Numbered from the stretch's first letter, positions 9,201 to 57,408 are shown. The stretch: DNA of 64,000 nucleotides from Bacteroidota bacterium (GCA_016717325.1 JADKFV010000002.1:135661-199660); one strand, 5' to 3'. A program made the numbers and translations. Notes: generated by a model not told the origin, from the letters alone.

Positions 9201-12200
9201 CAATGGCTTATCGGCAGGCACGTACACAGCAACAGTAACAGACTCAAAAGGCTGCACAGCAAAATGTTCATACACAGTAACAGAGCCAAGCTATGTAGTA
9301 GCAACATGCAGTGGCACGAATGTAAATTGCTACGGAGGCAACAATGGCAGCGCAAGCGTAACAGCAAGTGGCGGCACACCACCATACACATACATGTGGA
9401 GCAATGGTAAAACCACCTCATCGAATAACAATTTATCAGCCGGCACGTATACAGCTACAGTTACCGATGCAAACGGATGCACAGCAACCTGTTCATACAC
9501 TGTAACGCAACCAACATTATTGGTAGCAAGCTGCAGCGGCACGAATGTAACGTGCAAAGGCGGATCGACAGGTTCAGCAGCGGTGGTAGCAAGTGGAGGC
9601 ACAGCGCCTTACACATACTTATGGAGCAATGGAAAAACCACAGCCTCGAACAACGGCTTATCAGCAGGCACCTACACAGCAACAGTAACAGACTCAAAAG
9701 GCTGCACAGCAAAATGTTCATACACAGTAACAGAGCCAAGCTATGTAGTAGCAACATGCAGTGGCACGAATGTAAATTGCTACGGAGGCAACAATGGCAG
9801 CGCAAGCGTAACAGCAAGTGGCGGCACACCACCATACACATACATGTGGAGCAATGGTAAAACCACCTCATCAAACAGCAACTTATCAGCCGGCACGTAT
9901 ACAGCTACAGTTACCGATGCAAACGGATGCACAGCAACCTGTTCATACACTGTAACGCAACCAACATTATTGGTAGCAAGCTGCAGCGGCACGAATGTAA
10001 CGTGCAAAGGCGCATCGACAGGTTCGGCCGCAGTAGTAGCAAGTGGCGGCACAGCGCCTTACACATACTTATGGAGCAATGGAAAACCACAGCCTCGAAC
10101 AACGGCTTATCAGCAGGCACGTACACAGCTACAGTAACAGACTCAAAAGGCTGCACAGCAAAATGTTCATACACAGTAACAGAGCCAAGCTATGTAGTAG
10201 CAACATGCAGTGGCACGAATGTAAATTGCTACGGAGGCAACAATGGCAGCGCAAGCGTAACAGCAAGTGGCGGCACACCACCATACACATACATGTGGAG
10301 CAATGGTAAAACCACCTCATCAAACAGCAACTTATCAGCCGGCACGTATACAGCTACAGTTACCGATGCAAACGGATGCACAGCAACCTGTTCATACACT
10401 GTAACGCAACCAACATTATTGGTAGCAAGCTGCAGCGGCACGAATGTAACGTGCAAAGGCGCATCGACAGGTTCGGCCGCAGTAGTAGCAAGTGGCGGCA
10501 CAGCGCCTTACACATACTTATGGAGCAATGGAAAAACCACAGCCTCGAACAACGGCTTATCAGCAGGCACGTACACAGCAACAGTAACGGACTCAAAAGG
10601 CTGCACAGCAAAATGTTCATACACAGTAACAGAGCCAAGCTATGTAGTTGCAACATGCAGTGGCACGAATGTAAATTGCTACGGAGGCAACAATGGCAGC
10701 GCAAGCGTAACAGCAAGTGGCGGCACACCACCATACACATACATGTGGAGCAATGGTAAAACCACCTCATCGAATAACAATTTATCAGCCGGCACGTATA
10801 CAGCTACAGTTACCGATGCAAACGGATGCACAGCAACCTGTTCATACACTGTAACGCAACCAACATTATTGGTAGCAAGCTGCAGCGGCACGAATGTAAC
10901 GTGCAAAGGCGCATCGACAGGTTCAGCAGCGGTGGTAGCAAGTGGAGGCACAGCACCTTACACATACTTATGGAGCAATGGAAAAACCACAGCCTCGAAC
11001 AACGGCTTATCAGCAGGCACGTACACAGCAACAGTAACAGACTCAAAAGGCTGCACAGCAAAATGTTCATACACAGTAACAGAGCCAAGCTATGTAGTAG
11101 CAACATGCAGTGGCACGAATGTAAATTGCTACGGAGGCAACAATGGCAGCGCAAGCGTAACAGCAAGTGGCGGCACACCACCATACACATACATGTGGAG
11201 CAATGGTAAAACCACCTCATCAAACAGCAACTTATCAGCCGGCACGTATACAGCTACAGTTACCGATGCAAACGGATGCACAGCAACCTGTTCATACACT
11301 GTAACGCAACCAACATTATTGGTAGCAAGCTGCAGCGGCACGAATGTAACGTGCAAAGGCGCATCGACAGGTTCAGCAGCGGTGGTAGCAAGTGGAGGCA
11401 CAGCGCCTTACACATACTTATGGAGCAATGGAAAAACCACAGCCTCGAACAACGGCTTATCAGCAGGCACCTACACAGCGACAGTAACAGACTCAAAAGG
11501 CTGCACAGCAAAATGTTCATACACAGTAACAGAGCCAAGCTATGTAGTTGCAATGTGCAGTGGCACGAATGTAAATTGCTATGGAGGTAGCAATGGCAGC
11601 GCAAGCGTAACAGCAAGTGGCGGCACACCATCATACACATACATGTGGAGCAATGGTAAAACCACCTCATCGAATAACAACTTATCAGCCGGCACGTATA
11701 CAGCTACAGTTACAGATGCAAACGGATGCACAGCAACCTGTTCATACACTGTAACGCAGCCAACACCATTGGTAGCAACCTGCAGCGGCACGAATGTAAC
11801 GTGCAAAGGCGCATCGACAGGTTCGGCCGCAGTAGTAGCAAGTGGAGGCACAGCGCCTTACACATACTTATGGAGCAATGGAAAAACCACAGCCTCGAAC
11901 AACGGCTTATCGGCAGGCACGTACACAGCTACAGTAACGGACTCAAAAGGCTGCACAGCAAAATGTTCATACACAGTAACAGAGCCAAGCTATGTAGTAG
12001 CAACATGCAGTGGCACGAATGTAAATTGCTACGGAGGCAACAATGGCAGCGCAAGCGTAACAGCAAGTGGCGGCACACCACCATACACATACATGTGGAG
12101 CAATGGTAAAACCACCTCATCAAACAGCAACTTATCAGCCGGCACGTATACAGCTACAGTTACCGATGCAAACGGATGCACAGCAACCTGTTCATACACT

Positions 12201-15179
12201 GTAACGCAACCAACATTATTGGTAGCAAGCTGCAGCGGCACGAATGTAACGTGCAAAGGCGGATCGACAGGTTCAGCAGCGGTGGTAGCAAGTGGAGGCA
12301 CAGCGCCTTACACATACTTATGGAGCAATGGAAAACCACAGCCTCGAACAACGGTTTATCGGCAGGCACGTACACAGCAACAGTAACAGACTCAAAAGGC
12401 TGCACAGCAAAATGTTCATACACAGTAACAGAGCCAAGCTATGTAGTTGCAACATGCAGTGGCACGAATGTAAATTGCTACGGAGGCAACAATGGCAGCG
12501 CAAGCGTAACAGCAAGTGGCGGCACACCACCATACACATACATGTGGAGCAATGGTAAAACCACCTCATCGAATAACAATTTATCAGCCGGCACGTATAC
12601 AGCTACAGTTACCGATGCAAACGGATGCACAGCAACCTGTTCATACACGGTAACGCAACCAACATTATTGGTAGCAAGCTGCAGCGGCACGAATGTAACG
12701 TGCAAAGGCGCATCGACAGGTTCAGCAGCGGTGGTAGCAAGTGGAGGCACAGCACCTTACACATACTTATGGAGCAATGGAAAAACCACAGCCTCGAACA
12801 ATGGCTTATCAGCAGGCACGTACACAGCAACAGTAACAGACTCAAAAGGCTGCACAGCAAAATGTTCATACACAGTAACAGAGCCAAGCTATGTGGTTGC
12901 AACATGCAGTGGCACGAATGTAAATTGCTACGGAGGCAACAATGGCAGCGCAAGCGTAACAGCAAGTGGCGGCACACCATCATATACATACGTGTGGAGC
13001 AATGGTAAAACCACCTCATCGAATAACAACTTATCAGCCGGCACGTATACAGCTACAGTTACCGATGCCAATGGATGCACAGCAACCTGTTCATACACTG
13101 TAACGCAACCAACATTATTGGTCGCAAGCTGCAGCGGCACGAATGTAACGTGCAAAGGCGGATCGACAGGTTCAGCAGCGGTGGTAGCAAGTGGAGGCAC
13201 AGCGCCTTACACATACTTATGGAGCAATGGAAAACCACAGCCTCGAACAACGGCTTATCAGCAGGCACGTACACAGCACAGTAACGGACTCAAAAGGCTG
13301 CACAGCAAAATGTTCATACACAGTAACAGAGCCAAGCTATGTAGTAGCAACATGCAGTGGCACGAATGTAAATTGCTATGGAGGCAACAATGGCAGCGCA
13401 AGCGTAACAGCAAGTGGCGGCACACCACCATACACATACATGTGGAGCAATGGTAAAACCACCTCATCAAACAGCAACTTATCAGCCGGCACGTATACAG
13501 CTACAGTTACCGATGCAAACGGATGCACAGCAACCTGTTCATACAATGTAACCCAACCAACATTATTGGTAGCTAATTGCAGTGGAACACCAATATCTTG
13601 CAATGGAAAAGATAATGGCACTGCCAGTGTTAGTGCGACAGGAGGTAAACTTCCATACACTTACTTATGGAGCAATGGAAAAACAACCAGCACTATAATT
13701 GGACTTATGGCAGCTACATATTCAGTAACTGTAACGGATGCAAATGGCTGCGTTTCGAATTGTGTATATACTGTGACACAACCAACTCCATTGGTTGCTG
13801 TATGTAGCAAAAGCGGTATCTCTTGCTATGGTGGAAATAACAGTACAGCAACAATGTTTGTTTCAGGCGGCACACCGCCATATGCTTTCTTATGGAACAC
13901 AGGTGCAACCACATCAACTATTTCAGGTTTGTATGCGGGTAATTACACGGTTACTGTTACTGATGCAAATAACTGCCAATCGTCTTGTACATTGTTAATT
14001 GATCAGCCTGATTTGCTGACTGCAACCTGTACTGGTACAAATTTAACGTGCAATGGTGGGTCTACTGGTAGTGCGAATATTTCTGCATCTGGTGGTACTG
14101 GTTCGTACACATATTTGTGGAGTAACGGAGCAACAACAAGTGGCATTAGTAATCTTGGTGCAGGGGTCTATACTGCAACTGTAATAGACATCAACGGTTG
14201 CACAGCGTCTTGTGTAAGGACTATTACTCAGCCAGTTAGCATAGTAATAACAATGTCAGGTTCAAATGCAACATGTAATAATAATGGAACTGCACAAGTA
14301 GTAGCTGTTGGAGGTGTTCTTCCTTATACTTATCTATGGAGCAATGGCGCGACCACATCTTCTATTTCAGGTTTATTTGCAGGTACATATTCCGTAAAAG
14401 TTACTGATGCTGCAGGTTGTTCAAAAAATGGAACGTATACTGTAACACAATCTTCTTCTACGGTATTAACATTAACAGGAACAAATGTTCTTTGCTATGG
14501 TGCTTCAAATGGCACTGCCGTTGCTACAGCTGTAGGTGGAAGCCCGTTCACTTATTTATGGAGTAATGGAAAAACGACTAAGCAAATCGGTTCGTTATCT
14601 GCAGGCATCTACGCTGTAACTGTTACAAATAATTCCGGGTGTACATATACAGCTTCCATAAACATAACTTCACCATCTACATCACTCACTTGTCAGGCGT
14701 CAAGTACAAGTTCGCAAGGAGGTTCTTGTACAGGAACATTAACTGTTAGCTCAACTGGAGGAACTGCTCCATACACATATTTATGGAGTAATGGTGCAAC
14801 AACATGGAATGTTACCGGGGTTTGTGCTGGTCCGTATATAGTAACAGTTACAGATGCGAACGGATGCACATGCAGCAAAACAGTTAAGATAGATGCCGTT
14901 GTTGCTAAAGTTGGTTTTGATAGCCAATATATGCAATTAAGTTTGTCACCAAATCCAACCAGAGGATTAGTGAACATAAAATTTGTGACTGATGAAATTT
15001 TAAACTACACATTGAACATAATGGATGTAAATGGCAGAATTGTTTCAAGTGAAATGCGCCAAAGCGTAGAAGGGGAAAACACATTGTCAGTTGACTTAAG
15101 TACCCTAGATAAAGGTGTTTACCTTGTTAAGATTGATGCTGGGGGCTACACTCATTTCGCTCGAGTTGTCTTACATTAA
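264..15179 (+). CDS. Giant SprB-repeat cell-surface adhesin and T9SS cargo, about 4970 aa if read through. The frame is interrupted at about 2065-2110, 2296, 2465, 2497, 8290, 8705, 10085, 12335 and 13233-13262.
   Basis: Six consecutive ORFs in different frames have overlapping ends. All translate to the same ~75-aa SprB-type repeat: C-x-G-x-N-x-x-C-x-G..G.A.V.ASGG..PYTY.WSNG.T...N..L.AGTYT.TVTD..GC. There are about 63 repeats. The N-terminus (MKKSY...FAIASLLIVVQLSNNACA) is signal-peptide-like. The last 80 aa (LSLSPNPTRGLVNIKF...GVYLVKIDAGGYTHFARVVLH) match the T9SS C-terminal sorting domain. Confidence 0.8.
1365..13553 (+). repeat. Tandem array of about 27 copies of a 450-bp unit. Each unit encodes two SprB repeats. 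Copies differ at only a few positions per unit.
   Basis: Direct comparison of successive units, for example the motif caaccaacattattgg at 1365, 1815, 2306, 2756 and onward at 450-bp spacing up to 13106. Antisense ORFs of identical sequence recur every 450 bp in the ORF track. Confidence 0.9.
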
Positions 15180-16595: not shown

Positions 16596-19101
16596 CTATA
16601 ATTTTATTATTTTTTTTGTTGCTTGTCCTTCTGCTGTCGAAATTCTAAGAGTATACACTCCGGCTTCCACATCTTGTAAATTAATTAATTGCTGATTGAC
16701 ACCCTTTGAAAATTCTCTATTGGTAATTGTTTTTATTAATTTTCCAGACAAGTCATATAATGATAAATTGACATTTGTTGATGACGAAAGATGAAAGCTT
16801 ATAACACTATTTTCAAGTGCCGGATTAGGTTTAGCTTGCATCAAAGTTACCCCGCTGTTATTGTTTTGATGTTGATTAAAAACCGATAATGGATCATCGC
16901 CCGAAACATCGCGCAACCATAACCCTCGTCCATAGGTGGCAACTAAAACATAAAACTTACCATTTATTGCTGTGCTATCTATATAGTCGAGTTTGCTCAT
17001 TTCAACCCGCTTTGGTAATCCATTTGCCCACTTTACCCAAGTGATGCCGCCATCAAGTGTTTTAAAGCCTCCCTCGGTTGTTGCAACATAATATATGTTT
17101 GCGTTAATGGGAGATGGCAGTATATCTGTGATTGGCACATTGGGTAAATTTCCGCTTATGTTTGTCCATGTCAAGCCAATATCATCTGAACGAAATACTT
17201 TGTTACCTGCTGCGGCTGCGCTAATGTCTGTCACAGTGGCAAATACTCTATCGGGCAACACAAAGTCAGCCTGAATCTGATTGAATCCTAAATTGGGTAG
17301 CGTTCCGGTTCGGTCAACCCATTGCAATAAATTTCTATCGCGTACTTTTACTTTCGAGTTGACAAGGGTGTAAATGCTTGGTTCGCTAGAACCGCTTTGA
17401 TCAATACTGAAACTATAAATTTCGGAAGTAAAGGCATTGTTTGGGTTAACCTTTTCCCAGGTTACACCAAAATCGAAAGTACGATAAAGATAACTGCTTG
17501 CATTTGTATAAAGCGCACCCGTGTTATTATCTAATCTTAATGCTGGATACCATTGTCCGTTAGGGTCGATGCCCGTTGTATTATCTTGCCACGACATGCC
17601 ACCGTTGGTGCTAAACTGCCTGTGAAATGCGTGAGTGCCTCCATAAACACCAACAGCAGTATAAAGATTCAATGGAAAGAAAGGATCAGAAGCAACACCG
17701 CCTCCATCGCCTCCTGTAGTAGTCCAGTTGGGCACATTGGTTGATCGGTATACAGTGCCATTGTCCTGAGTTCCTCCAAGCATAGAACTTGCCGAAGCCT
17801 TCGATGCTGAACAATCAATATATTGTGTAATAGGTAAATTATTGGTCGCAGTATTTATTGTATTAAAAGAGAAGCCATTATTTTTAGAAATAAAAACGCC
17901 ACCATCGTTACCAATTATGCACCAATTATTTGCAGCAAAAGCTACAGCATGCTGATCGGCATGACGGCCATCTACTTCATTAAAAATATTTCCATCGGTG
18001 GTACGAAATATAGAAACACCACCAGCCATTACAATATTGGGATCGGTTGGATTAACGCCTATCGAATTATCATACCATCCTTGATTACCATGAAAATTTG
18101 AATTGGCCGGGTTTCCATTTATATCATTACCAAGAACACATTTTGTCCATGTGGCACCATCGTCTACAGATTTGTAAATTCCTTTTGTGCCATTGCTTGT
18201 GTTTTCGGTAATGTTTGCATAAATAATGGATGGTGACGAAAGGGCAATGTCAAGGGCCGTTCGTCCTACATTGGTAGCTGGTGCCGAAGTGTTTTTTATA
18301 AAATTTAAGCCACCATCGGTAGACCGGTAAATGCCCGAATTCCATTGTGCCAATACTATGTTATTCGGGTTGGTCGGATTTACAAACCACATCTGTAATT
18401 TCACCTTGCTTTGTTCTTGTCCATGTTACACCTCCATCATCCGACTGATAAAGTCCTGTATTGGCAGCGGCATATAATTTCAGAGGATTGCCATTTATTA
18501 TTATCAACTCATAAAAAGTACTGGGCTGTGGTGTGAGCGTTAATTTTGTCCAAGACACACCTTTATCGATAGTTTTCCAAAGGCCACAACCTCCCGACAA
18601 GGCACCTTCACCAGTACCAAGAAATATCACATCAGAGTTGTTTGGGTCGGTGGCAAAAGCGCCTCCGGCATTGCAATCGAGGTGGTCACTCAACGATTGA
18701 TTTACAATTGTTCCATTTGAGAGTGAATCTATTTGCCACAAACCACCCGTTGCACTTAATATCCGCATGGTGCCTTGTTTAGTGTATTCTACATCGGTAA
18801 CACGGCCGGAGTATACTATGGTAGAACCCGGAATAATACCAAAAGGGCCAATATTTTCCCATGCATTTACTGTAGCAACTTTTCCATTAGAAAGGCTTTG
18901 TTCATCGGGCATGTTTTTTATTTCGTCTGCAGCGCGTTGCAGGTATTCAGGGGTAGCATTGCCGTATGGATAATACCACCGCTGGCGGAGCATTTTTTCT
19001 TTCCATGGGCCTTTAATTATTGAAGGTGGTGTGAGTGCACTTTCCTGTGCCATTGCCATTGAAGCAATTGAGATTAAAAACAGAGTAAGCGTTTTTTTCA
19101 T
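16596..19101 (-). CDS. BNR/Asp-box repeat (beta-propeller, sialidase/sortilin-like) protein with T9SS C-terminal domain. One frameshift at about 18361-18404.
   Basis: Two overlapping minus-strand ORFs: 18361-19101 carrying the signal peptide, and 16596-18404. Repeated S-x-D-x-G-x-T/W-W motifs (DGGVTWTRT, DGGLNF, DGATWTKC, DFGVTWEKV, DIGLTWTNI, DGGITWVKW). The C-terminus VTLMQAKPNPALENSVISF...GVYTLRISTAEGQATKKIIKL is T9SS-CTD-like. Confidence 0.75.
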
Positions 19102-28109: not shown

Positions 28110-29206
28110 TTATTTCATCAATGCAACAAAGTCGTCAAACAAGTATCGCGAATCGTGAGGCCCCGGTGCCGATTCGGGATGGTATTGCACCGATGATGCT
28201 TTTGATTTTTTCACTCTTATTCCCTCAATGCTGCCATCGTTCAAATTAACGTGAGTAACTTCTATATTGGTGTGTTTTTCTACGTCTTCTTTCACTACTG
28301 CAAACCCATGATTTTGTGAAGTGATTTCGCATGTGCCTGTGATAATATTTTTTACAGGGTGATTTATCCCGCGGTGTCCGTTAAACATTTTGAAAGTTCC
28401 TATGCCTTGACTTTCGGCAAGTATTTGATGTCCTAAGCAAATGCCAAATAATGGTTTATTGGAATCTACAATTTGTTTTACTGTTTTAACCACTTCGGGC
28501 ATTACAGATGGGTCACCGGGGCCATTCGAAATTAAATATCCATTTGGTTGCCACGCTTCCATTTCGGCAAATGAAGTATTATGCGGAAAAACTTTTACAT
28601 AACACCCACGCTCGCTAAGGCACCTCAACGAATTTGTTTTTATTCCTAAATCGAGAACTGCAGTTTTTATTTTGCTTTTTCATCACCAAAAGTGTATGAA
28701 ATATCTGTCGAAACTTTTGACGATAATTCAAGCCCGGCCATTGAAGGAACTTTTTCTAATTGAGCCAACAATGTTTCTTTAGTAGCCAATGCAGGGCCAA
28801 TAATAGCATTCATGGCACCTTTGCTGCGTATGTATCGCACCACGGCACGCGTATCAACATTGCTGATTGCTAAAATATTATGTTTCTTAAAATACTCGCG
28901 CACACCTGTTTGAGAGGCAGAGCGCGAAAAAAAATCTTCGAAACTGCGACAAACCAAACCGGCTATTTTAATGCCATTGCTTTCGCTTTCGCTTTCGAGT
29001 ATTCCATAGTTACCAATATGAACATGTGTGGCAACTAATATCTGGCCGTAGTACGATGGGTCGGTAAATACTTCCTGATAGCCTGTCATGCCGGTATTGA
29101 AGCATATTTCGCCAGTAGTAACTATATCCGGTGAAGCTAACTTTCCTGTAAACACCTGACCGTCTGCCAAAACTAAAAGCCCTTCAATATCATTTGTCGA
29201 TTTCAT
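28110..29206 (-). CDS. carA: Carbamoyl-phosphate synthase small (glutamine amidotransferase) subunit. Frameshift in an A/T run at about 28660-28680.
   Basis: The 28667-29206 ORF is the CarA N-terminal domain. The 28110-28628 ORF is the class-I glutamine amidotransferase domain (PLFGICLGHQIL, catalytic Cys). The junction reads ...FGDEKAK* and continues in another frame as KIKTAVLDLGIKTNSLRCLSERG. Confidence 0.85.
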
Positions 29207-29460: not shown

Positions 29461-31527
29461 ATGAAAAAAAACTTATCTAAATCTTTAGTAGGATTAATGA
29501 TGCTAGGTGTGGCATCATTGCAAGTAAATGCCCAGGCATTTAAATATCCTTTCTTTCAACATTACACACAGGCAAGTTGTGGCCCTTGTGCTGCGCAGAA
29601 TCCGGGTTTCCAAACGGCAATCCTCAACGCAAATCCAACTACAGTTCACCACATGGCTGTTCATACTTCGTGGCCCGGTGTAGATCCTATGTACAGTGCA
29701 AATCCTACAATTGCTGACGATTTGGTTACCTATTACAATATCACTGGTGTGCCATCTGTTGTATTGCAAGGTAACTTTAAACAAGGAGGACCAAGCGCAT
29801 TTCAGCAAGCAGATGTTGATGCAGTGATAGCACAAACAAGTCCTATTAGAGTTGATGTTTCTCACGTTGTAAATGGAATGATGCGCACCGTTACTGTGGT
29901 AGTTACTAATGCTTCGACCAACACATTTTCGAACAACTACACTTTGCGCACAGCTGTTATTGAGCGCAATGTGAATTACACTTCAGCTCCAGGTAATAAT
30001 GGCGAAACTTTTTTCCCAAATGTATTGCGCGAGTTGTTACCAAACTCTGCCGGTGATGTTATCTCTATACCTGCACCCGGTGCTACTTTAACTATGACTT
30101 ATCCTTATACACTTGATGTATCTTGGGTTGATACCGAAATTGAAGAATTAGCATGGGTGCAAGATGACGCCACCAAAGAAGTATTGAACAGTGGTGCATC
30201 ATTCGATGTTGGTGTAAATGCCTCTATCAATCCTCCTGCTGTTATTACCCAAAATGTTGTTGCAAATACAACTACTACTTTTGCTTTATCTACGGGTAAT
30301 CTGTCGCCAAATGTAAACGACTTCGATTATGCACTTACATCAACTGCACCTGGAAACTGGACTGCATCGTACAATGTAAATGGGACAAATTATACAGCCA
30401 ATACTACCATTTCAATTCCCGGCAATACAAACTTTCCTACTGATATTGTTGTTGTTCCCGGAGCCACTGCAGGTATTGGTGAGTACACATTAACTATCAC
30501 TGCCACAGGCAATCCGCTTGTGCCTGCTATGATTGTGAAAGTATATGTTATTTCGGGCGTAGGAACTTTATTGATAAACAATTCTGGTGGTTTGGGTGAT
30601 GGCACTACTGCAGGCGATGCCAGCAACTGGCAACAAGTTTATATGGATGGACTTGCATTTGCCAATTGTACAGACTATGCTATTGCAAACGAAAAGTTTT
30701 GTGCACGTGCTATAAAAGATAATGCAATGACAGGTATCAATAAAATATTTTATAATGTTGGCTGGACTTTCCCAGGACTTACTGATGATTTAGTTGCACA
30801 ACTTTCAACTTTCTTAGATAACGGTGGCCGATTATTTATTGCCGGTCAAGATATAGGTTGGGAAGCATTTGACGGTGGTGCCCAATACTCTACTCAAGCG
30901 AAAATGGATTTTTACAATAACTATTTGCATGCGAATTATGTAGGTGATGGTTCAACAAATGCAAATGTTGCTTTCAATTTAAATACAAACGATGTGATTT
31001 TTGGCGGCACAACAAGTACCACACTTAAAAACTTTTATGGTGGCACTTATTTTTTCCCCGATGATATTACTGCTATGGGCATAGGTGCTGTAACTGCATA
31101 TTATGGTGCCGGCACTACTAAGCCCGGTGGTGTGCGTTCATGGAATAACATCAACAAGACTGTTTATTTTCCTCCCGGAATGGAAATGGTTACTTCGGTA
31201 GCTGTGAAGGATCAGATTGTAAAATTATCGTACGATTGGTTTAATGATTTAATAAGTGTAGAAGAGTACGATGCTGCTATGGCAAAATTAGGACAAGCAT
31301 ATCCAAACCCTGCAAACGGAAATGTATTTATACCTATTACCAATGCCTTTGCAAACTCATCAATACAAGTTACAGATATTACCGGACGCGTTGTATTAAC
31401 ACAATCAACAAACGGACAAACTACTGTGGAGTTGAATGTTGCTGCATTAAATGCCGGTTACTATACTTATAGAATAGTTAGTGGTAATACTGCAACAAAT
31501 GCATTGCCATTAGAAATAGTGAAATAA
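29461..31527 (+). CDS. T9SS-secreted protein with N-terminal thioredoxin-like CGPC motif. Function unknown.
   Basis: Signal peptide. YTQASCGPCAAQNP carries a CGPC. Middle domain is unknown. C-terminus GQAYPNPANGNVFIPI...GYYTYRIVSGNTATNALPLEIVK is T9SS-CTD-like. Confidence 0.6.
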   Translation: MKKNLSKSLVGLMMLGVASLQVNAQAFKYPFFQHYTQASCGPCAAQNPGFQTAILNANPTTVHHMAVHTSWPGVDPMYSANPTIADDLVTYYNITGVPSVVLQGNFKQGGPSAFQQADVDAVIAQTSPIRVDVSHVVNGMMRTVTVVVTNASTNTFSNNYTLRTAVIERNVNYTSAPGNNGETFFPNVLRELLPNSAGDVISIPAPGATLTMTYPYTLDVSWVDTEIEELAWVQDDATKEVLNSGASFDVGVNASINPPAVITQNVVANTTTTFALSTGNLSPNVNDFDYALTSTAPGNWTASYNVNGTNYTANTTISIPGNTNFPTDIVVVPGATAGIGEYTLTITATGNPLVPAMIVKVYVISGVGTLLINNSGGLGDGTTAGDASNWQQVYMDGLAFANCTDYAIANEKFCARAIKDNAMTGINKIFYNVGWTFPGLTDDLVAQLSTFLDNGGRLFIAGQDIGWEAFDGGAQYSTQAKMDFYNNYLHANYVGDGSTNANVAFNLNTNDVIFGGTTSTTLKNFYGGTYFFPDDITAMGIGAVTAYYGAGTTKPGGVRSWNNINKTVYFPPGMEMVTSVAVKDQIVKLSYDWFNDLISVEEYDAAMAKLGQAYPNPANGNVFIPITNAFANSSIQVTDITGRVVLTQSTNGQTTVELNVAALNAGYYTYRIVSGNTATNALPLEIVK

Positions 31528-31541
31528 TTTTTATAGGTGCG

Positions 31542-31609
31542 TTGAATTAATTATTCAACAACAAAATCAAAAAACCGTCATACAGAAATGTGTGACGGTT
31601 TTTTTTTGT
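31542..31609. repeat. Copy A of a 66-bp direct repeat containing a bidirectional rho-independent terminator.
   Basis: ttgaattaattattcaacaacaaaatcaaaaaaccgtcatacagaaatgtgtgacggttttttttt. A second copy at 32516-32581 has one mismatch and a T-run one base shorter. Confidence 0.8.
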
Positions 31610-31697
31610 AACCCGGGCTGAATACTTACAAACATCGTGAAACTAAACATCATATATTATGCGAAAAGTTTTGAGAATATCGGAGAGTTTCTGTTCC

Positions 31698-32126
31698 TTA
31701 AAAAGATAATAACTCTTCTGTTGTAATAAATTCGTTCCAATGCTTTTTGGATAATCCATTAAACAGTTTCTTATCGCCAGTCCACAACTTGCCATTAATA
31801 AACATTGCAAGTGCCACAAATTCTGTATCATCAATATCGATACCTTTTGTTAAAGATTCGGCATGTGAATATAATTTTAGAGGAACTAACTCTACACTTA
31901 TTAACCTAATTTTTTCTGTTACTAATTTTATTACCAAATCAAGTTCTGCATCGTTGTATTTTGAAATAGTTTTTAGTTTATTTCTATGTTCCGATAATTC
32001 ATTTTCAAGTTGATTGGTTGAATAGAAGGTTTATTCGGATTTTGGCTTTAATATGATTTTTGAAAATTTACTATTAGTATTTAGAATGGCACTAAAAACA
32101 ATATTGGTATCAATCACAATTTTCAT
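31698..32126 (-). pseudogene. PIN-domain (VapC-like) toxin gene with an in-frame TAA at codon 32 (positions 32031-32033).
   Basis: Translation from ATG 32126: MKIVIDTNIVFSAILNTNSKFSKIILKPKSE*TFYSTNQLENELSEH...DTEFVALAMFINGKLWTGDKKL. This is a PIN N-terminal Asp motif plus C-terminal acidic motifs. The start overlaps the upstream ORF stop by 4 bp. Confidence 0.6.
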
Positions 32127-32389
32127 AACCCGATTTTTTGTTTAGTTTTTTGCCACCTACCTTTTTTTATTTGTCTTACTAGCTCATCCACTTGTTTTTG
32201 CTTAGCCTGCGATTTTTGGGCAACTTCTCTAAATTTAAATAAATTAACCAAGTCTTGTAAGTCGTCTACTTTTATCGTTGCTGGAAACCGAAACAAAATC
32301 TCGTTTTTAGTTCTTTCTATTATCATTACTAATTCTTTTAGATGTTCAATCAAATACAAAGATATTATTTTCTTTATAGTTCTAAACAC
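32123..32389 (-). CDS. Putative antitoxin, an 88-aa basic helical protein, translationally coupled to the PIN gene.
   Basis: Position and 4-bp overlap with the PIN gene. K/R-rich C-terminus. No sequence-family call is possible. Confidence 0.4.
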   Translation of the reverse strand: MFRTIKKIISLYLIEHLKELVMIIERTKNEILFRFPATIKVDDLQDLVNLFKFREVAQKSQAKQKQVDELVRQIKKGRWQKTKQKIGL

Positions 32390-32515
32390 GAAAAATTGTA
32401 ACTATAAAATTTAGATTGAAGATAGGCCAAAGCAAATCTGGTTCCTGAAATAAAAGCTATTGAAGGTTTTCGGAATTCTGATTGATATACTTTTTTTAAT
32501 TGGCCTTGCAACTTT

Positions 32516-32581
32516 TGAATTAATAATTCAACAACAAAATCAAAAAACCGTCATACAGAAATGTGTGACGGTTTTTTTTGT
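32516..32581. repeat. Copy B of the 66-bp terminator-containing direct repeat.
   Basis: See copy A. Confidence 0.8.
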
Positions 32582-32621
32582 GAATAATATTTTGCTGTGT
32601 TGGTTTTTCTATTGAAAACAA

Positions 32622-32839
32622 TTAATAAATTATTCTACCGTCTGCCATCTCTATGGTTCTATAACTATTTCTTGCAAAATCGGAATCGTGTGTTACGGCA
32701 ATAATAGTATGATGGTTTTGGTGTGCTAACTGCTTAAAAATATCAAAAATAATTTGGGAATTTTCACTATCTAATTACCGGTTGGTTCATCGCACATAAT
32801 TATTTTAGGTTCGTTAATCATAGCTCTTGCAATAGAAAC
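32622..32839 (-). pseudogene. 3' remnant (about 72 codons) of an ABC-transporter ATP-binding gene, LolD/MacB-like. It has an internal frameshift at about 32772 and is truncated at its 5' side.
   Basis: Reverse-strand translation gives VSIARAMINEPKIIMCDEPTGN, then a 1-nt gap, then LDSENSQIIFDIFKQLAHQNHHTIIAVTHDSDFARNSYRTIEMADGRIIY*. This covers the signature-to-Walker-B-to-H-loop region of an ABC ATPase. A stop codon lies immediately upstream and there is no Walker A. Confidence 0.65.
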
Positions 32840-32878
32840 TTAAAACTATAAACTACGAAACTAAAAACTAAGAAAAAA

Positions 32879-35065
32879 TCACTCCACCACCAACTTCCCG
32901 GTAAAGATTCTTCCGCCATCAATCACCACTTTATAAAAATAAATGCCGACCGATAAATTATTTTTTGATACTATAAATAGCTCATTGGTATTGATTGCTT
33001 TACGCGATTGATTGATTAATATTTTTCCCGTTACATCCATTATTTGAAGTTGCATAAAATCGTTTTCGCTTAAACCACCAATTTTTATTTGTGTAAAATT
33101 TGAAAATGGATTTGGAAATACGGTTACAAAATAATTGGCAGCAATGTTTTCATTAATGCCAACACCGCACATAAGCAAAGTATTAAAGCCATTTACCTTA
33201 CCATAACCCCACGTGTTGTTGGGTAATGCTAAGCCGGTACTTGTATCGGTTTTAGCAGCACAAATAATGTATTGCCTGAACTGTGCAGCGGTGAGCTGTG
33301 GATTTTTTTCTAAGAACAATGCACCAATGCCCGCAACAACAGGTGCAGCAAACGATGAACCACCCGAACCATAATGATAACATCCTTTTAAATTTTTATT
33401 ACTGGTTGCATTTGCTGCAAAGTATGCAAGTGGAAATGCTGCCATATTATACGAACCCGAAGCACACACTTCGGGCTTGGTGCGATTGTCACGTGTAGGG
33501 CCATGGCTACTGTTGCTTATGATACTACCCTTTGGCGAAAAGCCTACAAGACTTACCAACGAATCCTGACAATTGCGGTGACTGTTGCGATTTAGATAAT
33601 CCCCCACGGTAATCACTTCATCGAGGCATGCAAAACTACTTACGTTTGTCATCAGTGTATCGGGCAAAACATAATTTACAATTTCGGGATTAATTGCTGA
33701 AGAAGGCAATCCACTGTTTTCCATTCCTGTTTGGTAATTTGTATAAAGCAAATCCCACAAATCGAAACGGCCGTTGCCCGTAGCATTCAATCGCCATAAG
33801 TAAGAAGTGGAATCGGGAAAAATATAAAACTCCATCGAGTATGTGTTGCTTTGTTTCGACAAAAATCTTTCAATAATTCCAACCCGTTGGCCTTGCGCAT
33901 TTTTTAAGGTATCGTAAAAAGACTGATTTAAAATAGCAGGAATAAAATTGTAGGCTGTATTACCAACATAAGAATATGTTGATTTATTAGCATCGGCACC
34001 AATGGAGAATTGAATATTTTTCATGTCGGCACTATCGCCCCATGCCTGAATGTAAACACCAAGCCCGGGAATGAAACTTCCCAATGCATTATCAAATTTA
34101 AACCAGGTAAAATTTGTATCGCTTGTTGCTGTGTATCCCAAGTGATATGGGCGATTACCAAAATTTCCAATTGCACCAACCATCAATTGTCCGGGCTGGG
34201 TGGTGATAAGATTCTTTATCGCTTGTGCTTCGAGGTCGCGGCCATCGTGCGAACCATAGTAATCGCCAAGACTTGCATTAATAACACAAGGCTTGCCCAT
34301 GAGCGCGGCTTTTGCAAATATGTATGCAACTGCATCGGCAATGCGGCCAGGGGCACTACTACTAAAATCATATTTCACCATAATTATATCGGCATCGGGT
34401 GCTACTCCTTTGTTGGTGCCCGTGGCAAGGCCATTGCCTGCACCTACACCTGCTACATAAGTTCCATGCCCATCGGCCGCAACTTGTGTACAAGCACTGC
34501 CATCAATATCGGCAGCGGTAAATTCTTGTCCGTACGTGTATGGGGCAGGTGTATTACTATTTGCTGGTAACGAGTGGTCCCAAATAAATGCGATGCGTGT
34601 TTTGCCGGCAGTGTCCAAAAAATCAGGATGCAAATAATCGATACCGGTATCAATGAAACCCATCACTACATTTTTGCCGGTATACGGTTGTGTAAGCGGG
34701 CTCAATCCCTGATGTATTTCGTTTATGTTATTGTTCACACGCATGGTGTCGTTCAATGTCACATTGTGGGCGGGGCGGCTTTCAAGGCGTTGCACCCTTT
34801 CAGTGGTTATTAGTGTTGCAATTTTTCCAACTTGTATTTCCATGGCAACTATGTCTCCGGCAGTGTATTTTATTTTTGCCTGCAGCGATAGAGCTGTCTG
34901 CTTAATAGCATTCACATCGCCTTGCACAAACACACCCATCCATTCGCCACGATTGTCGGTGCGGGTAATTTTTTTGCTGATGTTATAATCGAAATTTGCT
35001 TTGTGTTGAGCATTCACTTGCGAAACAAATAGTGCAGCTAAAGCGATGATAAAAATTTTTCTCAT
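32879..35065 (-). CDS. S8 subtilisin-family serine peptidase with T9SS C-terminal domain.
   Basis: Catalytic triad contexts MGFIDTGID (Asp), GHGTYVAGV (His) and GGSSFAAPVVAG (Ser). Signal peptide. C-terminus VTVFPNPFSNFTQIKI...GIYFYKVVIDGGRIFTGKLVVE. Confidence 0.9.
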   Translation of the reverse strand: MRKIFIIALAALFVSQVNAQHKANFDYNISKKITRTDNRGEWMGVFVQGDVNAIKQTALSLQAKIKYTAGDIVAMEIQVGKIATLITTERVQRLESRPAHNVTLNDTMRVNNNINEIHQGLSPLTQPYTGKNVVMGFIDTGIDYLHPDFLDTAGKTRIAFIWDHSLPANSNTPAPYTYGQEFTAADIDGSACTQVAADGHGTYVAGVGAGNGLATGTNKGVAPDADIIMVKYDFSSSAPGRIADAVAYIFAKAALMGKPCVINASLGDYYGSHDGRDLEAQAIKNLITTQPGQLMVGAIGNFGNRPYHLGYTATSDTNFTWFKFDNALGSFIPGLGVYIQAWGDSADMKNIQFSIGADANKSTYSYVGNTAYNFIPAILNQSFYDTLKNAQGQRVGIIERFLSKQSNTYSMEFYIFPDSTSYLWRLNATGNGRFDLWDLLYTNYQTGMENSGLPSSAINPEIVNYVLPDTLMTNVSSFACLDEVITVGDYLNRNSHRNCQDSLVSLVGFSPKGSIISNSSHGPTRDNRTKPEVCASGSYNMAAFPLAYFAANATSNKNLKGCYHYGSGGSSFAAPVVAGIGALFLEKNPQLTAAQFRQYIICAAKTDTSTGLALPNNTWGYGKVNGFNTLLMCGVGINENIAANYFVTVFPNPFSNFTQIKIGGLSENDFMQLQIMDVTGKILINQSRKAINTNELFIVSKNNLSVGIYFYKVVIDGGRIFTGKLVVE

Positions 35066-47180: not shown

Positions 47181-48823
47181 ATGACATCATTTATTCGCTT
47201 CAAAATTTTTAAATTCAATATTGTACAAAATAATTTGTCAGGCACATTTTGTAAACCATTATTTTGTTTCTTGACACTGCTATTAATTTCAACATCAATA
47301 TTGGCACAAAATAAAAGTATGAATGATAATGCTAAATCAGCACAACAAAACCTTACTGCAAGTTTTCCTAATTGTGTTTTTTACGAAATATTCATTCGCT
47401 CGTTTTGCGATTCCAATAATGATGGAATAGGGGATATACCCGGCATAATTTCGAAATTGGATTACTTACACGATTTGGGTATCGAAGGAATTTGGCTTAC
47501 ACCTTTTAATCCATCGCCAAGCTATCACAAGTATGATGTTACCGATTATTACAATGTTGATGAAGAATATGGAACATTGGATGATGTGCGCGAACTTATT
47601 ACAGAAGCACACAAACGCAATATAAAAGTGATAATGGATTTTGTGGTGAACCACACTTCGGTGCAACACCCTTGGTTTATAGAAGCACAAAAGAGTAAAA
47701 CAAATGCTTACCACAATTATTATACTTGGGCCGATGAAAATAATTTACCGGGCGAAAAACATTGGTGGCATTTTTTACAAAGCAATTCGAAACAAACCAT
47801 TGAAGGTGAAAAGTATTTAGGTTTTTTTGACCGTTCCATGCCCGATTTAAATTACGATAACAATGATGTACGAAGCGAAATAATTAAGGCCGGGAAATAC
47901 TGGCTCAAAGATATTGGCATGGATGGTTTTAGACTTGATGCAGCAAAGTGGATTTATATGCCCGGCAACGAAAAGACAAATTATAGCTGGTGGCAACAGT
48001 TTGTTTCCGAAATGAAAAAGTAAAACCTTCAGCTTTTTTGTAGGTGAAATTACCGATAAAAATATTGCCACAGCACCATACCTTAAAGATGCACTTACTT
48101 CTGTTTTCAATTTCGAACTTGCCGAAAAAATAGTTGAGACCGTGCAAACTTATACCGATAGTGGAATTGTAAGTTTAGTGAATGATTCACGCCATCTTTT
48201 TCGAGAATAATCCCGGATTTATTGATGCAACTTTCATCACCAATCATGATCAGGATCGAATTGCTTCGTTTACAAACGGTGACGAAAATAAAACGAAAAT
48301 GGCTGCAGCAATATTACTCACCTTGCCCGGTTCACCATTTATATATTATGGCGAAGAACTTGGTATGACAGGCAAAAAACCCGATGAGCAAATCCGTGAA
48401 CCTTTTTTGTGGAATGATGATGCAATTGATGCCGGCCAGACTTCGTGGATAAAAGCAAAATACAGTGTGGAGCAAAATGTAAAACCACTGTCATTCCAAA
48501 TTATAGATGGCAACAGCATTTACGCTTATTATAAGAAATTAATTTCAATACGCAATCAATCTCTGGCATTGCGTGTTGGTGATCTGGTTTCTTCGGCATT
48601 GAGCTCCGATAACTTTTTGGTCTATCAGCGGGCTGTAAAACTTAATAGCGCAATTGTTATACATAACTTGCAAAGCGAATTAAAGGTGGTAGATTTGTTT
48701 TCTATTGCAAAAGGAAAATATAAAATTTTATTTGCCACATCATCTGTCGACATAACGGGAGGAAGCATAATAAAGGTCCCGCCATACTCGTCTGTTATAA
48801 TTGATGTAACCGATTTGAAATAG
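47181..48823 (+). CDS. GH13 alpha-amylase. Two frameshifts, at about 48015-48020 in an A5 run and at about 48150-48200.
   Basis: DFVVNHTS (region I). GFRLDAAKWI (region II, with the Asp nucleophile). ITNHDQDR (region IV) in the downstream ORF. The middle piece SAFFVGEITDKNIATAPYLKDALTSVFNFELAEK (region III, carrying the Glu) lies in a third frame. Confidence 0.8.
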
Positions 48824-53070: not shown

Positions 53071-56000
53071 TTACTGTTTTACGAAAGTATTATTCATTAC
53101 ACCTTGAGGAGTAATTATTTTAAGTGTAAAAATTCCTTTACCTAAGTTGCTTGTGTTTATAATGCCATTGGTAAGTTGGCCATTGAGAATAACTCGGCCT
53201 GTTAAATCCAGCACTTCAAATTTTGCATTTTGTAATTTTGAATTATCAGATACGTATACATGCATAGTTGTTGTTGCAGGATTAGGATAAAGCATAAACG
53301 AAGATTGCGGTGTTTCTGATAAGCCAATTGAGCTGAATAATTCTACATCGTCCCAATAGTATGTTTTTTGTCCCGCAGTTGCACCATCGGTACCGAAGTT
53401 AAAGAATATGGAGGCCATGTCGTATAAGTATGCGGGGTTGAAAACAGCAGTTCCTGGTGCTTCGTTATCAAAATCGAACACAAGATATTCCCAGGTATTT
53501 ACTCCTGTAGTGAGGGCTTCTGTTTCAACACTTTGAGTTGGCTGTCCGTGCACTTCCACTTTCAACCGTACCGGAATATTTGCATCGGGCGAGTAAACAC
53601 GAACACGCATTTTGTGATTATTTGCCGTGAAAGGAATAACATTAGCAAAGCCAAGATTTGTTCCAATGGTGGTACCGGCCCATGTTTGTGCTGCTGCAGT
53701 TTTTGTAGTAATAGCTACTTTGTTTGCGGCATTGTTTGGGTCGGGCCCAAGTACCGATGCATTTCCTCCAAAATCGGTAAGGGTATAATCTACATTTAAT
53801 GAATCGAAATATACAGGAAGGTTTATTTGATTTAAACCTGTGCCACCACCCGTAACAAAACGAATTTCGTCCTGGTAGAATGTAAAGTTTGCACTGCTAT
53901 CGCCCATCACACCTAAATCATAAATGAAGACTAAATCGGTATAAGTATTTGATGCTGTTCCCGAAAAATCCCAACTCAATTCTTCCCATGCATTTGCTAA
54001 TGTAGTAGTATCCGATTTTTCGACAAATCCACCGGCAGAGTTTTCTAATTTGAAAAGAACAGGACATCCGGTGCGAGGAGAATAGACAAACATTTTAAAT
54101 GTGTTGTTGGTGGTAAAGTCTAATGCCGATGCAAGAGTTAATTTACTACCTCCCCAAACCTGACCAACATTTTTTATCATTCGCAGCACTTTAGGCGTTG
54201 TATCCAATCCTCCCGGATACGGGTTTGTCATTAATGTTGTTATGCCACCATCGAAGTCTGTCATGGTGTATGTAATTGTAGAATCATCATAAGTAATTGG
54301 CAATACCAATCCAAGATTTGCACCCGATACAAATTCTACATCATCGAAGAGATAAGTTTTTTGTCCTGCAGTTGCACCATCGGTACCGAAGTTGAAAAAT
54401 ATGGAAGCCATATCGTATGGAAAAGCAGCGTTGAAAGCTGCCGTACCCGGAGCTTCATTATCGAAATCGAAAGTTAACCATTCCCATGTATTTACACCTG
54501 TGGTTAATGCTTCTGTTTCTACCGATTGTCCGGGTTGTCCGTGCACTTCCACTTTCAATCGCACAGGAATATTTGCATCGGGTGAGTATACACGCACTCT
54601 CATTTTTCTATCGACTGCGGTAAAAGGAATAACCGAAGCAAAACCAAGATTGGTTCCAATGGTAGTGCCAGCCCATGTTTGCGCGGTTACATCTTTTGTT
54701 GTAATAGCAACAGTGTTTGCAGCATTGTTTGGATCGGGACCAAGCACAGTAGAGTTGCCACCAAAATCGGTAACGGTATAATCAACATTAGCAACATCGA
54801 ATGTTACAGGCAAATCAATTTGATTTAATGCACCCGATACAAATTCTACATCATCGAAGAGGTAAGTTTTTTGTCCTGCAGTTGCACCATCAGTTCCGAA
54901 GTTAAAAAATATGGAAGCCATATCGTATGGAAATGCTGCATTGAAAGCTGCCGTACCCGGAGCTTCATTATCGAAATCGAAAGTTAACCATTCCCAGGTA
55001 TTTACTCCTGTGGTTAATGCTTCTGTTTCTACCGATTGTCCGGGTTGTCCGTGCACTTCCACTTTCAATCGCACTGGAATATTTGCATCGGGTGAGTAAA
55101 CACGCACTTGCATTTTTCTATCGACTGCTGTAAAAGGAATAACCGAAGCAAAACCAAGATTGGTTCCAATGGTAGTGCCGGCCCATGTTTGCGCGGTTAC
55201 ATCTTTTGTTGTAATAGCAACTGTGTTTGCAGCATTGTTTGGATCGGGACCAAGCACAGTTGAGTTACCACCAAAATCGGTAACGGTATAATCAACATTA
55301 GCAACATCGAATGTTACAGGCAAATCAATTTGATTTAATGCACCCGATACAAATTCTACATCATCGAAGAGGTAAGTTTTTTGTCCTGCAGTTGCACCAT
55401 CGGTACCGAAGTTAAAAAATATGGAAGCCATATCGTATGGAAATGCTGCATTGAAAGCTGCCGTACCCGGAGCTTCATTATCGAAATCGAAAGTTAACCA
55501 TTCCCAGGTATTTACTCCTGTGGTTAATGCTTCTGTTTCTACCGATTGTCCGGGTTGTCCGTGCACTTCCACTTTCAATCGCACTGGAATATTTGCATCG
55601 GGTGAGTATACACGCACTCTCATTTTTCTATCGACTGCGGTAAAAGGAATTACCGAAGCAAAACCAAGATTGGTTCCAATGGTAGTGCCAGCCCATGTTT
55701 GCGCGGTTACATCTTTTTGTTGTAATAGCCGGGACCAAGCACAGTAGAGTTGCCACCAAAATCGGTAACGGTATAATCAACATTAGCAAGGCAGATACAG
55801 GCAAATCAATTTGATTTAATGCCCGATACAAATTCTAACATCGAAGAGATAAGTTTTTGGTCCTGGCGGGGGCCCAACCGTGCCGGGGGGGAAAAAAAGG
55901 GGGGGAAAAGGGATCGTATGGAAATGCAGCGTTGAGCCCGGAGCTTCATTATCGAAATCGAAAGTTAACCATTCCCAGGTATTTACTCCTGTGGTTAATG

Positions 56001-57408
56001 CTTCGGTTTCTACCGATTGACCGGGTTGTCCGTGCACTTCCACTTTCAATCGCACCGGAATATTTGCATCGGGTGAGTAAACACGCACTTGCATTTTTCT
56101 ATCGACTGCCGTAAAAGGAATTACCGAAGCAAAACCAAGATTGGTTCCAATGGTAGTACCGGCCCATGTTTGCGCGGTTACATCTTTTGTTGTTATAGCA
56201 ACAGTGTTTGCAGCATTGTTTGGATCGGGACCAAGAACAGTAGAGTTGCCACCAAAATCGGTAACGGTATAATCAACATTAGCAACATCGAAAGTTACAG
56301 GCAAATCAATTTGATTTAATGCACCCGCTACAAATTCTACATCATCGAAGAGATAAGTTTTTTGTCCTGCAGTTGCACCATCGGTACCGAAGTTAAAAAA
56401 TATGGAAGCCATATCGTATGGAAATGCTGCATTGAAAGCTGCCGTACCCGGAGCTTCATTATCGAAATCGAAAGTTAACCATTCCCATGTATTTACACCT
56501 GTGGTTAATGCTTCTGTTTCTACCGATTGTCCGGGTTGTCCGTGCACTTCCACTTTCAATCGCACAGGAATATTTGCATCGGGTGAGTATACACGCACTT
56601 GCATTTTTCTATCGACTGCTGTAAAAGGAATTACCGAAGCAAAACCAAGATTGGTTCCAATGGTAGTACCAGCCCATGTTTGCGCGGTTACATCTTTTGT
56701 TGTTATAGCAACAGTGTTTGCAGCATTGTTTGGATCGGGACCAAGCACAGTAGAGTTGCCACCAAAATCGGTAACAGTATAATTCACATTAGCCAGGTCG
56801 AAAGTTACCGGCAAATCAATTTGTGCCGGTGGAGCTTGCATCAATTTTACATTTTCGAAGTAGTATGTTTTTGCGCCTGCTGTTGCTCCATCGGTACCGA
56901 AGTTAAAAAATATGGATGCCATGTCGTAAGCGTAAGCTGCATTGAAAGCTGCCGTGCCAGGAGCTTCATTATTGAAATTAAAATTTAACCACTCCCATGC
57001 ATTTGCCGTTGTTGTCATGGCCTCTGTTTCTACCGATTGGCCTGCTTGTCCATGTACTTCCACTTTCAGTCGCACAGGAATATTTGCATCGGGTGAGTAT
57101 ACGCGCATTCTCATTTTTCTGTTATTTGCAGTAAATGGAATTGGATTTGCAAAACCAAGATTGGTACCAACGGTAGTGCCGGCCCATGTTTGCGCGGTTG
57201 CACCTTTTGTTGTTATGGCGACAGTATTGGCAGCATTGGTTGGATCGGGACCAAGCACGGTTGAATTGCCACCAAAATCGGTAACGGTATAATCAACATT
57301 TGTGAGGTCGAATGTTACGGGCAAATCAATTTGATTTAATTGAGCCTGTGTTGTTCCGAAGCTGAATGCTAAAAGAAACAACAGAACAGATTTGATAATT
57401 TTTTGCAT
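53071..57408 (-). CDS. T9SS-secreted surface protein built from about 8 tandem ~170-aa beta-sandwich (CBM/lectin-like) repeats. The sequence is corrupted at about 55700-55940.
   Basis: Signal peptide MQKIIKSVLLFLLAFSFGTTQAQ. Repeats NQIDLPVTFD.ANVDYTVTDFGGNSTVLGPDP...RVYSPDANIPVRLKVEVHGQPGQSVETEA...FFNFGTDGATAGQKTY. C-terminus SSFMLYPNPATTTMHVYV...GIFTLKIITPQGVMNNTFVKQ is the T9SS CTD. Confidence 0.7.
54300..56830 (-). repeat. Near-identical tandem DNA repeats with a period of about 510-525 bp, inside the T9SS repeat protein gene.
   Basis: Identical antisense ORFs (MEAISYGNAALKAAVPGASLSKSKVNHS...) recur at 54392, 54911, 55421 and 56402. Protein repeat units are letter-for-letter identical. 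Confidence 0.7.

Follow-up and report, generated by a model that had tools for sequence, protein, structure and literature searches.

Promoter-bearing toxin–antitoxin (TA) cassettes are enriched in sedentary chromosomal integrons (Richard et al. 2024, PMC13108822), and complete integrons are reported to be rare in Bacteroidetes (IntegronFinder 2.0, PMC9024848). Here we present the analysis of a TA-like gene pair in a 64,000-nucleotide stretch of DNA from an uncultured Bacteroidota bacterium (GCA_016717325.1, JADKFV010000002.1:135661–199660); the whole stretch is referred to as the window, and positions are counted from its first letter. The pair consists of a PIN_2 toxin gene and a gene for a partner of 67 amino acids (aa). 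It is located between two copies, A and B, of a terminator-bearing direct repeat, next to the 3′ remnant of a lolD-like gene, and all of these lie between two conserved genes, which encode a 688-aa Omp28-like protein and an S8 subtilase. The account which we favour, and which we regard as fairly probable, is that of a decaying chromosomal type II TA module in a variable islet, flanked by the terminator copies, where a unit of 973 bp would have recombined in. An earlier note, made from the sequence of the window, had proposed a PIN-type two-gene TA module between duplicated terminator-bearing elements, and this proposal is supported by the analysis; several of its details are revised below.

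The locus resembles VapBC-type modules in that a PIN toxin follows a small coupled partner, with a 4-bp overlap and with acidic residues which are conserved in the family. It differs from them in that the toxin is a pseudogene of the PIN_2 branch (PF10130), and in that the 67-aa partner has no recognised antitoxin family. The TA cassettes of integrons (PMC13108822) are likewise promoter-containing pairs of about 0.9–1 kb which are bounded by direct repeats, whereas the repeat of this locus is a terminator unit found in two copies, one of which appears to form the original 3′ end of a core gene. Concerning the clusters of attC sites lacking integrases (CALIN; PMC9024848), two similar sites about 1 kb apart and without an integrase would formally reach the two-site threshold, but the sites of the locus lack the inverse cores at opposite ends and the extrahelical bases of attC. 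Bidirectional terminators also comprise a GC-containing stem-loop with an A-run and a T-run between convergent 3′ ends; unlike them, the unit of this locus is duplicated near-exactly, together with an upstream AT-rich hairpin, around a gene pair.

The toxin pseudogene and its partner

The PIN open reading frame (ORF) matches the Pfam family PIN_2 (PF10130) with 89.3 bits against a cutoff of 22.4 (E=3e-25), and TIGR00305 with 22 bits, which is under the 29-bit cutoff of that family. The acidic residues D6, E43, D97/D99/D100 and D118 match invariant alignment columns, so that both the PIN domain and the conserved acidic catalytic residues of a PIN/VapC-like toxin are present; in place of the nearly invariant E108 and H109, the PIN protein of the window has M and F. 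More than 1000 PIN_2 homologues were found, the closest intact one being 67% identical. In a plasmid collection no relative of the islet was found, and the single PIN match has 33% identity.

The ORF marked in the earlier note keeps its PIN domain but not an intact frame, as it is interrupted by one in-frame TAA, with no frameshift. This TAA, at codon 32, occupies a conserved hydrophobic position, mostly Leu in the homologues, and a change from TTA to TAA would account for it. It is common to five independent contigs (L007, L009, L011, L018 and L019) and to every sampled strain, and the intact toxin frame of a type II TA module is absent from all haplotypes. The PIN gene of L018 has an additional, second stop codon as well as the substitutions E41K and E43K. 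Haplotype differences in the antitoxin gene, on the other side of the 4-bp overlap, amount to zero. Based on these sequences the toxin appears dead in all sampled strains, with decay ongoing beside an intact antitoxin; because the toxin carries a nonsense codon and accumulates lesions while the antitoxin is intact, the module would no longer be an addiction system. The locus can be read as a textbook death of an addiction module, in which the toxin is lost first, lesions accrue and the antitoxin stays intact.

The 67-aa partner (MIIERT...LQD...KKGRWxKTK) is found upstream of PIN in about 35 metagenomic loci, where an overlap of 4 bp is likewise typical, and its family is widespread and always coupled to PIN_2. 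No relative was found in Pfam, NCBIfam or PDB, and no antitoxin or DNA-binding family is recognisable. The partner is small, co-oriented, translationally coupled and co-conserved with the toxin, and we consider its family a putative, uncharacterised antitoxin family. Concerning the two-gene operon claimed earlier, the coupling through the 4-bp ATGA stands, and the start of the antitoxin gene is moved to the ATG at 32326. A start at 32389 was rejected, as the segment 32327–32389 is an artefactual N-terminal extension according to the about 35 homologous loci. The motif TATCTTTG, located upstream of the ATG, is presumably the −7 box of the TA operon, judging from the published TAnnTTTG consensus.

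The terminator-bearing repeat

A direct repeat with one mismatch and a terminator, which had been noticed earlier at a length of 66 bp, is present; its strict length is 65 nt (31542–31606 and 32515–32579), and the sole mismatch is T/A at 31552/32525. In shuffled sequence, 0 chance matches to the 65-nt repeat are expected. Copy A has a T-run of 9 nt and copy B one of 8 nt; past the T-run the homology between the copies extends, with a 2-nt indel, to about 31611 and 32587, respectively. Each copy has two parts, an AT-rich hairpin or palindrome and, after a 9-nt spacer, a 10-bp GC-containing stem (CCGTCATACA / TGTGTGACGG). In copy A the palindrome is GTTGAAT-TAATT-ATTCAAC at 31541–31559, with GTTGAAT at 31541–31547 and ATTCAAC at 31553–31559. 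The second hairpin of each copy has a GAAA loop, with A6 upstream and T8–9 downstream.

In the fold the main stem is wholly paired save one G-T pair and has no extrahelical bases. For the copy A hairpin, the RNA fold energies are −30.1 kcal/mol (+ strand, z −6.8) and −24.1 kcal/mol (− strand, z −5.6), and the folds of both copies on both strands are better than those of shuffled sequences (z −3.3 to −6.8). The copy A hairpin sits where the 688-aa gene (+) and the PIN gene (−), which converge on it, have their 3′ ends, and the structural traits of a bidirectional intrinsic terminator are all present: a GC-containing stem, a U-run, a mirrored A-run and adjoining gene 3′ ends. Based on the fold, the repeat is predicted to be a two-hairpin unit which ends in a bidirectional Rho-independent terminator. 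No family for the element was found in Rfam, the matches being sub-threshold and terminator-like only.

Comparison of strains and the resident copy

Exact look-ups of the proteins encoded on either side gave no match, and the near-identical relatives of the locus were obtained through a homologue search and 90% clusters. Two classes can be distinguished among the contigs which encode an identical 688-aa protein. In type 1 the arrangement is that of the window; in type 2 (L005, L006 and L013) the 688-aa gene and one diverged element are followed by unrelated genes. The 688-aa gene is nearly identical across strains with or without the cassette. The homology to the type-2 strains stops at the stop codon of this gene, the element excepted, and in a strain with a 91%-identical S8 gene the homology ceases right at the S8 stop codon. 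Since the homology to relatives breaks at both flanking stop codons, the interval 31528–32878 is considered accessory. Its GC content of 29.1% is the lowest among 314 sliding windows of 1351 bp (mean 40.0%, sd 5.0).

In the type-2 allele of L005 (12068–22067), the element is followed by a gene for a 254-aa protein with a weak alpha/beta-hydrolase match and by an 837-aa protein of the SprB kind, associated with the type IX secretion system (T9SS). The allele continues with a 1370-aa RHS/YD-repeat protein and then a protein of >2100 aa; L006 and L013 are alike.

Within type 1, haplotype 1b (L017–L020) has the same architecture as the window. Two independent assemblies of short reads, L007 and L011, match the window without a difference across 31536–32944, and an assembly artefact as the source of the nonsense codon, the frameshift and the repeat copies is excluded by them. 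A block of ~3.5 kb (29461–32944) is nearly identical between the window and L007/L011 (3 single-nucleotide polymorphisms), and its flanks differ by 2–5%; this identity suggests a recent recombinational spread centred on the 688-aa gene. Judging from these comparisons, recombination among strains at the locus appears to be mosaic and pervasive. A rearrangement at the locus had been claimed earlier, and a site of strain-level rearrangement is indeed supported.

The TA-less strains of type 2 have a roughly 80%-identical orthologous element at the same offset from the stop codon of the 688-aa gene. The homology of its flank with that of copy A passes the T-run by about 25 nt (16/30 matches, shuffle p=0.02), whereas the flank of copy B has no significant homology to the sequence downstream of the type-2 element. 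As the TA-less strains have a diverged orthologue at the same offset, copy A appears to be the resident terminator of the upstream Omp28-like gene; this positional orthology, together with a flank homology that is shared with copy A only, makes copy B the likely secondary copy. Copy B differs between haplotypes 1a and 1b at 1/66 positions, and in the adjacent segments the differences amount to 6.7% (75 bp), 7.3% (41 bp) and 9.6% (218 bp). It would have been either homogenised against copy A or constrained. In the distant relatives L015 and L016, unrelated terminators of like design are found 3′ of the orthologous gene.

Proposed history of the locus

In the account that we favour, a cassette-sized unit of 973 bp, comprising the gene pair and one terminator copy, would have recombined in at or beside the resident terminator, and gene conversion, or selection on terminator function, would since have maintained the likeness of copies A and B. 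Copy A may end both the transcript of the 688-aa gene (+) and that of the TA pair (−). Copy B follows the S8/lolD-remnant transcript and precedes the TA operon; it may end the former and shield the latter from read-through. Inspection of the 39 nt that separate the lolD remnant from the S8 stop codon gave no evident hairpin; the first hairpin 3′ of the S8 gene that resembles a terminator is thus the one of copy B. The lolD fragment would be separate DNA, imported or decayed, with a truncation unrelated to the insertion of the cassette. The period of 973 bp is near the periods of 784–960 bp of integron cassettes in two arrays (L028 and L029) which carry homologous pairs. Copy B could either have formed at the insertion or have come inside an imported patch, and we keep both origins.

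Several points weigh against this account. An empty site, with the 688-aa gene, one element and the lolD remnant, was not recovered among the relatives, and the mechanism of insertion is a conjecture from the arrangement. A Campbell-type insertion predicts that the ancestral right flank follows copy B, and the weak flank homology follows copy A. A simple scan for consensus terminators did not call the hairpins, whose terminator function is a prediction from the fold; the scan probably missed them because the A- and T-runs lengthen the stem. Also, the search for additional copies in the source genome covered 64 kb.

We consider it possible, at a low probability, that the whole islet is one patch recombined from a related lineage, in which case copy B would be the terminator of the donor, converted to copy A later. 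The low GC content is uniform across the islet, the lolD fragment included, and the pervasive mosaic recombination with its near-identical ~3.5-kb block between flanks that differ by 2–5% also speaks for it. Copy B forms an island of identity inside diverged flanks, and the flank homology to the TA-less allele follows copy A. However, the donor arrangement was not found, an extra step of conversion is required, the closest intact PIN homologue is only 67% identical, and the closest LolD homologues found are about 75–80% identical.

The LolD-like remnant

The fragment beside copy B had been described as a frameshifted ABC ATPase remnant. The last 72 codons stand as described, and the frameshift is limited to the haplotype of the window, one of the two cassette-bearing haplotypes, where it is a 1-nt deletion near 32774; in haplotype 1b the remnant is an open ORF of 69 aa with an identical 5′ truncation point. 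From this comparison, the truncation appears to be older than the split of the haplotypes. A complete LolD nucleotide-binding domain (Walker A, Q-loop, signature, Walker B, H-loop) is not present, the fragment being confined to the C-terminal positions given in Table 1. At 32% in a genome of 40%, the GC content of the remnant suggests imported DNA rather than a resident gene.

The stop codon of the remnant and the 42-nt spacer beside copy B are intact. The truncation junction is about 260 bp from copy B and 39 bp from the stop codon of the S8 peptidase, and the missing two-thirds of lolD would have been on the side far from copy B. Because the truncation is on that far side, the insertion of the cassette is not considered its cause, and the destruction of a neighbouring gene, as the earlier note had it, is contradicted by the intact 3′ end of lolD beside copy B. 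More generally, an exact duplication of a terminator around a small insertion is no automatic proof of a mobile-element scar or of gene destruction.

An empty site with an intact lolD-like gene, which the earlier note had suggested looking for in relatives, was not found among the related contigs; the TA-less strains have unrelated genes after the element. No lolD paralogue is present in the window. A search with the 72-aa remnant gave only short or partial LolD-like proteins and no intact counterpart, and the nearest LolD homologues found are about 75–80% identical to it. One candidate for the remnant elsewhere (P0199) adjoined a contig end. The ABC ATPase/MacB operon downstream of distant orthologues of the 688-aa gene (52–55% identity) was also considered as the missing intact gene and ruled out: it is co-oriented with the 688-aa orthologue, has only 44–45% identity to the remnant, and lies in surroundings without other synteny.

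Copy number of the element

With a covariance model of the element (R1), the two copies reach 97 and 94 bits, and the other matches in the window have ≤21 bits and are generic terminators. When the window is taken together with about 110 kb of related contigs, the remaining R1 matches have ≤33 bits and are either a copy truncated at a contig end or generic terminators, and no further copy was found in this total of about 175 kb. A hairpin scan of species-representative genomes gave three unrelated terminators only and no locus with the full element, and a scan of metagenome contigs gave no other locus with the full element. Within the data at hand (about 175 kb) the element is a local duplication. 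One of the three terminators from the hairpin scan, in an unrelated Flavobacteriales metagenome-assembled genome (L003, 176–199), has an identical 24-nt hairpin, including the loop, with different flanks; the identity is probably due to convergence or to a short conserved terminator.

The alternative offered in the earlier note was a genome-wide repeat of the repetitive extragenic palindromic (REP) or miniature inverted-repeat transposable element (MITE) kind. In such a case the element would be a dispersed family, and its copies would stand on both sides of the cassette by chance or as a result of repeat-mediated rearrangement. Several assemblies (L004, L008, L010, L014 and L017) do break inside the element, and elsewhere homologous pairs lie amid intergenic repeats, some of them REP-like (L052 and L055). 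The breaks are equally explained by a local duplication combined with strain heterogeneity, and we hold a dispersed family to be unlikely, given the distance between the scores of the two copies and those of the next matches in the window, the outcome of both hairpin scans, and the lack of terminal inverted repeats and target-site duplications at the element. As far as it reaches, the covariance model gives two copies in 64 kb and none in the about 110 kb of related contigs.

Homologous pairs at other loci and the attC question

Direct repeats of 24–206 bp flank the pair at 8–9 of the 32 metagenomic homologous loci which have enough flanking sequence; in the control, with repetitive coding regions set aside, such repeats were found at 2/139 positions. 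At two of the loci, L028 and L029, the pair makes up one unit of an array in which 4–5 repeats of about 220–240 nt are spaced 698–960 bp apart. In 7/7 cases the GTTxxxx which ends repeat n and the xxxxAAC which opens repeat n+1 are exact reverse complements of each other, and because this crossover rule is obeyed throughout, the pairs of L028 and L029 are genuine integron cassettes. This finding agrees with the known enrichment of TA cassettes in chromosomal integrons (PMC13108822). That small addiction modules travel as repeat-bounded cassettes, as had been claimed earlier, holds for the family: the pair of PIN_2 and the 67-aa partner is widespread and often forms a repeat-bounded cassette, including in integron arrays of uncultured bacteria.

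The arrays of L028 (1–3791) and L029 (1090–6161) are of the integron type with unusually long repeats, and no integrase was found within these stretches. Also present in them are a second PIN pair, a GNAT-like gene, a SnoaL-like gene and genes for small secreted or membrane proteins. Six further homologous loci (L034, L052, L055, L058, L035 and L049) have direct repeats of 24–220 bp of varied kinds; some of these are GC-rich and REP-like, and some end with GTTGAGC or GTTGAAT.

The element of the window could itself be a site for site-specific recombination, similar to attC or forming the core of an integrative element, with the 973-bp unit as a mobile cassette; the locus would then be a minimal two-site CALIN or the integrase-less remnant of a cis-mobilizable element (CIME). 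The left edge of the repeat is exactly at G|TTGAAT, a core of the GTTRRRY type. ATTCAAC, of the RYYYAAC type, is found 5 nt on, and near-complements, GCTGAAT at 31618–31624 and TGTGAAT in copy B, follow the hairpin. If the first hairpin is deprived of its left arm, single-strand folds close the heptamers around the hairpin. The integron cassettes of L028 and L029, with their 7/7 crossover rule, and the 8–9/32 repeat-flanked homologous loci against 2/139 control positions also point in this direction. However, the perfect heptamers GTTGAAT and ATTCAAC are adjacent and palindromic, 5 nt apart at the left end, and not at the opposite ends of the site as the cores of attC are. The heptamers after the hairpin match at 6/7 positions in copy A and 5/7 in copy B only, which is about the chance level in AT-rich DNA. 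The main hairpin, fully paired save one G-T and set between an A-run and a T-run, has the architecture of a terminator and lacks the extrahelical bases of the imperfect attC hairpin. Neither an integrase nor an array accompanies the element, as there are two copies only and no recombinase domain among the larger ORFs of the window; in Pfam searches, integrase and transposase domains were found neither among these ORFs nor among the Pfam-annotated neighbours on related contigs. In the TA-less strains, moreover, the diverged orthologue is the plain 3′ end of the same gene. On these grounds the element does not appear to belong to the attC sites, and we regard its being a recombination site as improbable.

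Very improbable is a dual role, in which the terminator unit would double as a recombination site, with a core made of the 7-5-7 palindrome GTTGAAT-TAATT-ATTCAAC and the recurring TGRAT after the hairpin, and the 973-bp cassette would enter the 3′ ends of Bacteroidota genes without a linked integron integrase; if true, it would mean integron-independent movement of cassettes and would extend the repeat-bounded habit seen at 8–9/32 unrelated loci, but the present evidence opposes it.

Features of the locus and other observations

The features of the locus are presented in Table 1. The organism is an uncultured member of the Bacteroidota with a GC content of 39.8%, and its genes include those of T9SS cargo proteins and a SusC/SusD pair.

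Table 1. Coordinates of the features at and around the TA locus (positions in the window)
Feature	Position	Strand	Description
688-aa Omp28-like protein with T9SS C-terminal sorting domain	29461..31527	+	Conserved left flank; Pfam Omp28, Por_Secre_tail
Strain-variable AT-rich islet, 1.35 kb	31528..32878		Between two convergent conserved genes
Repeat copy A	31542..31611 (strict identity 31542-31606)		Terminator unit, apparently resident at the 688-aa gene
Hairpin of copy A (predicted bidirectional intrinsic terminator)	31569..31607		A6, stem CCGTCATACA, loop GAAA, stem TGTGTGACGG, T9
PIN_2 (VapC-like) toxin pseudogene	31698..32126	-	142 codons; premature TAA at 32031-32033 (codon 32)
Antitoxin-like partner, intact, 67 aa	32123..32326	-	ATGA overlap with PIN start
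Putative Bacteroidota-type −7 box	32357..32364	-	TATCTTTG; motif search; 30 nt upstream of ATG
Repeat copy B	32515..32587 (strict identity 32515-32579)		Apparent secondary copy
Terminator hairpin of copy B (predicted)	32542-32579		A6, stem-loop, T8
LolD-like ABC ATPase 3′ remnant	32622..32839	-	Last 72 codons; TIGR02211 LolD positions 150-219 of 221
728-aa S8 subtilase with T9SS sorting domain	32879..35065	-	Conserved right flank; Pfam Peptidase_S8, Por_Secre_tail

Upstream of the 688-aa gene, at 28110–29206, carA is split by a single indel into a GATase part of 172 aa and a CPSase small-chain domain of 179 aa; it is intact (365 aa) in all related contigs, and the split probably reflects an assembly error in the form of an indel, the alternative being a pseudogene specific to the strain. 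Split genes are also found at 16596–19101 (a Sortilin/BNR T9SS protein, 602 + 246 aa) and at 47181–48823 (an alpha-amylase, 280 + 213 aa), and these splits are consistent with scattered frameshifts in the assembly of the window. A giant SprB-repeat region occupies 264–15179; its tandem units have a period of about 450 bp, with copies 92–99% identical, and it is broken into overlapping ORFs of 1955, 481, 819, 426 and 662 aa. At 53071–57408, adjacent paralogous T9SS/CBM35 genes share long stretches of 80–97% identity.

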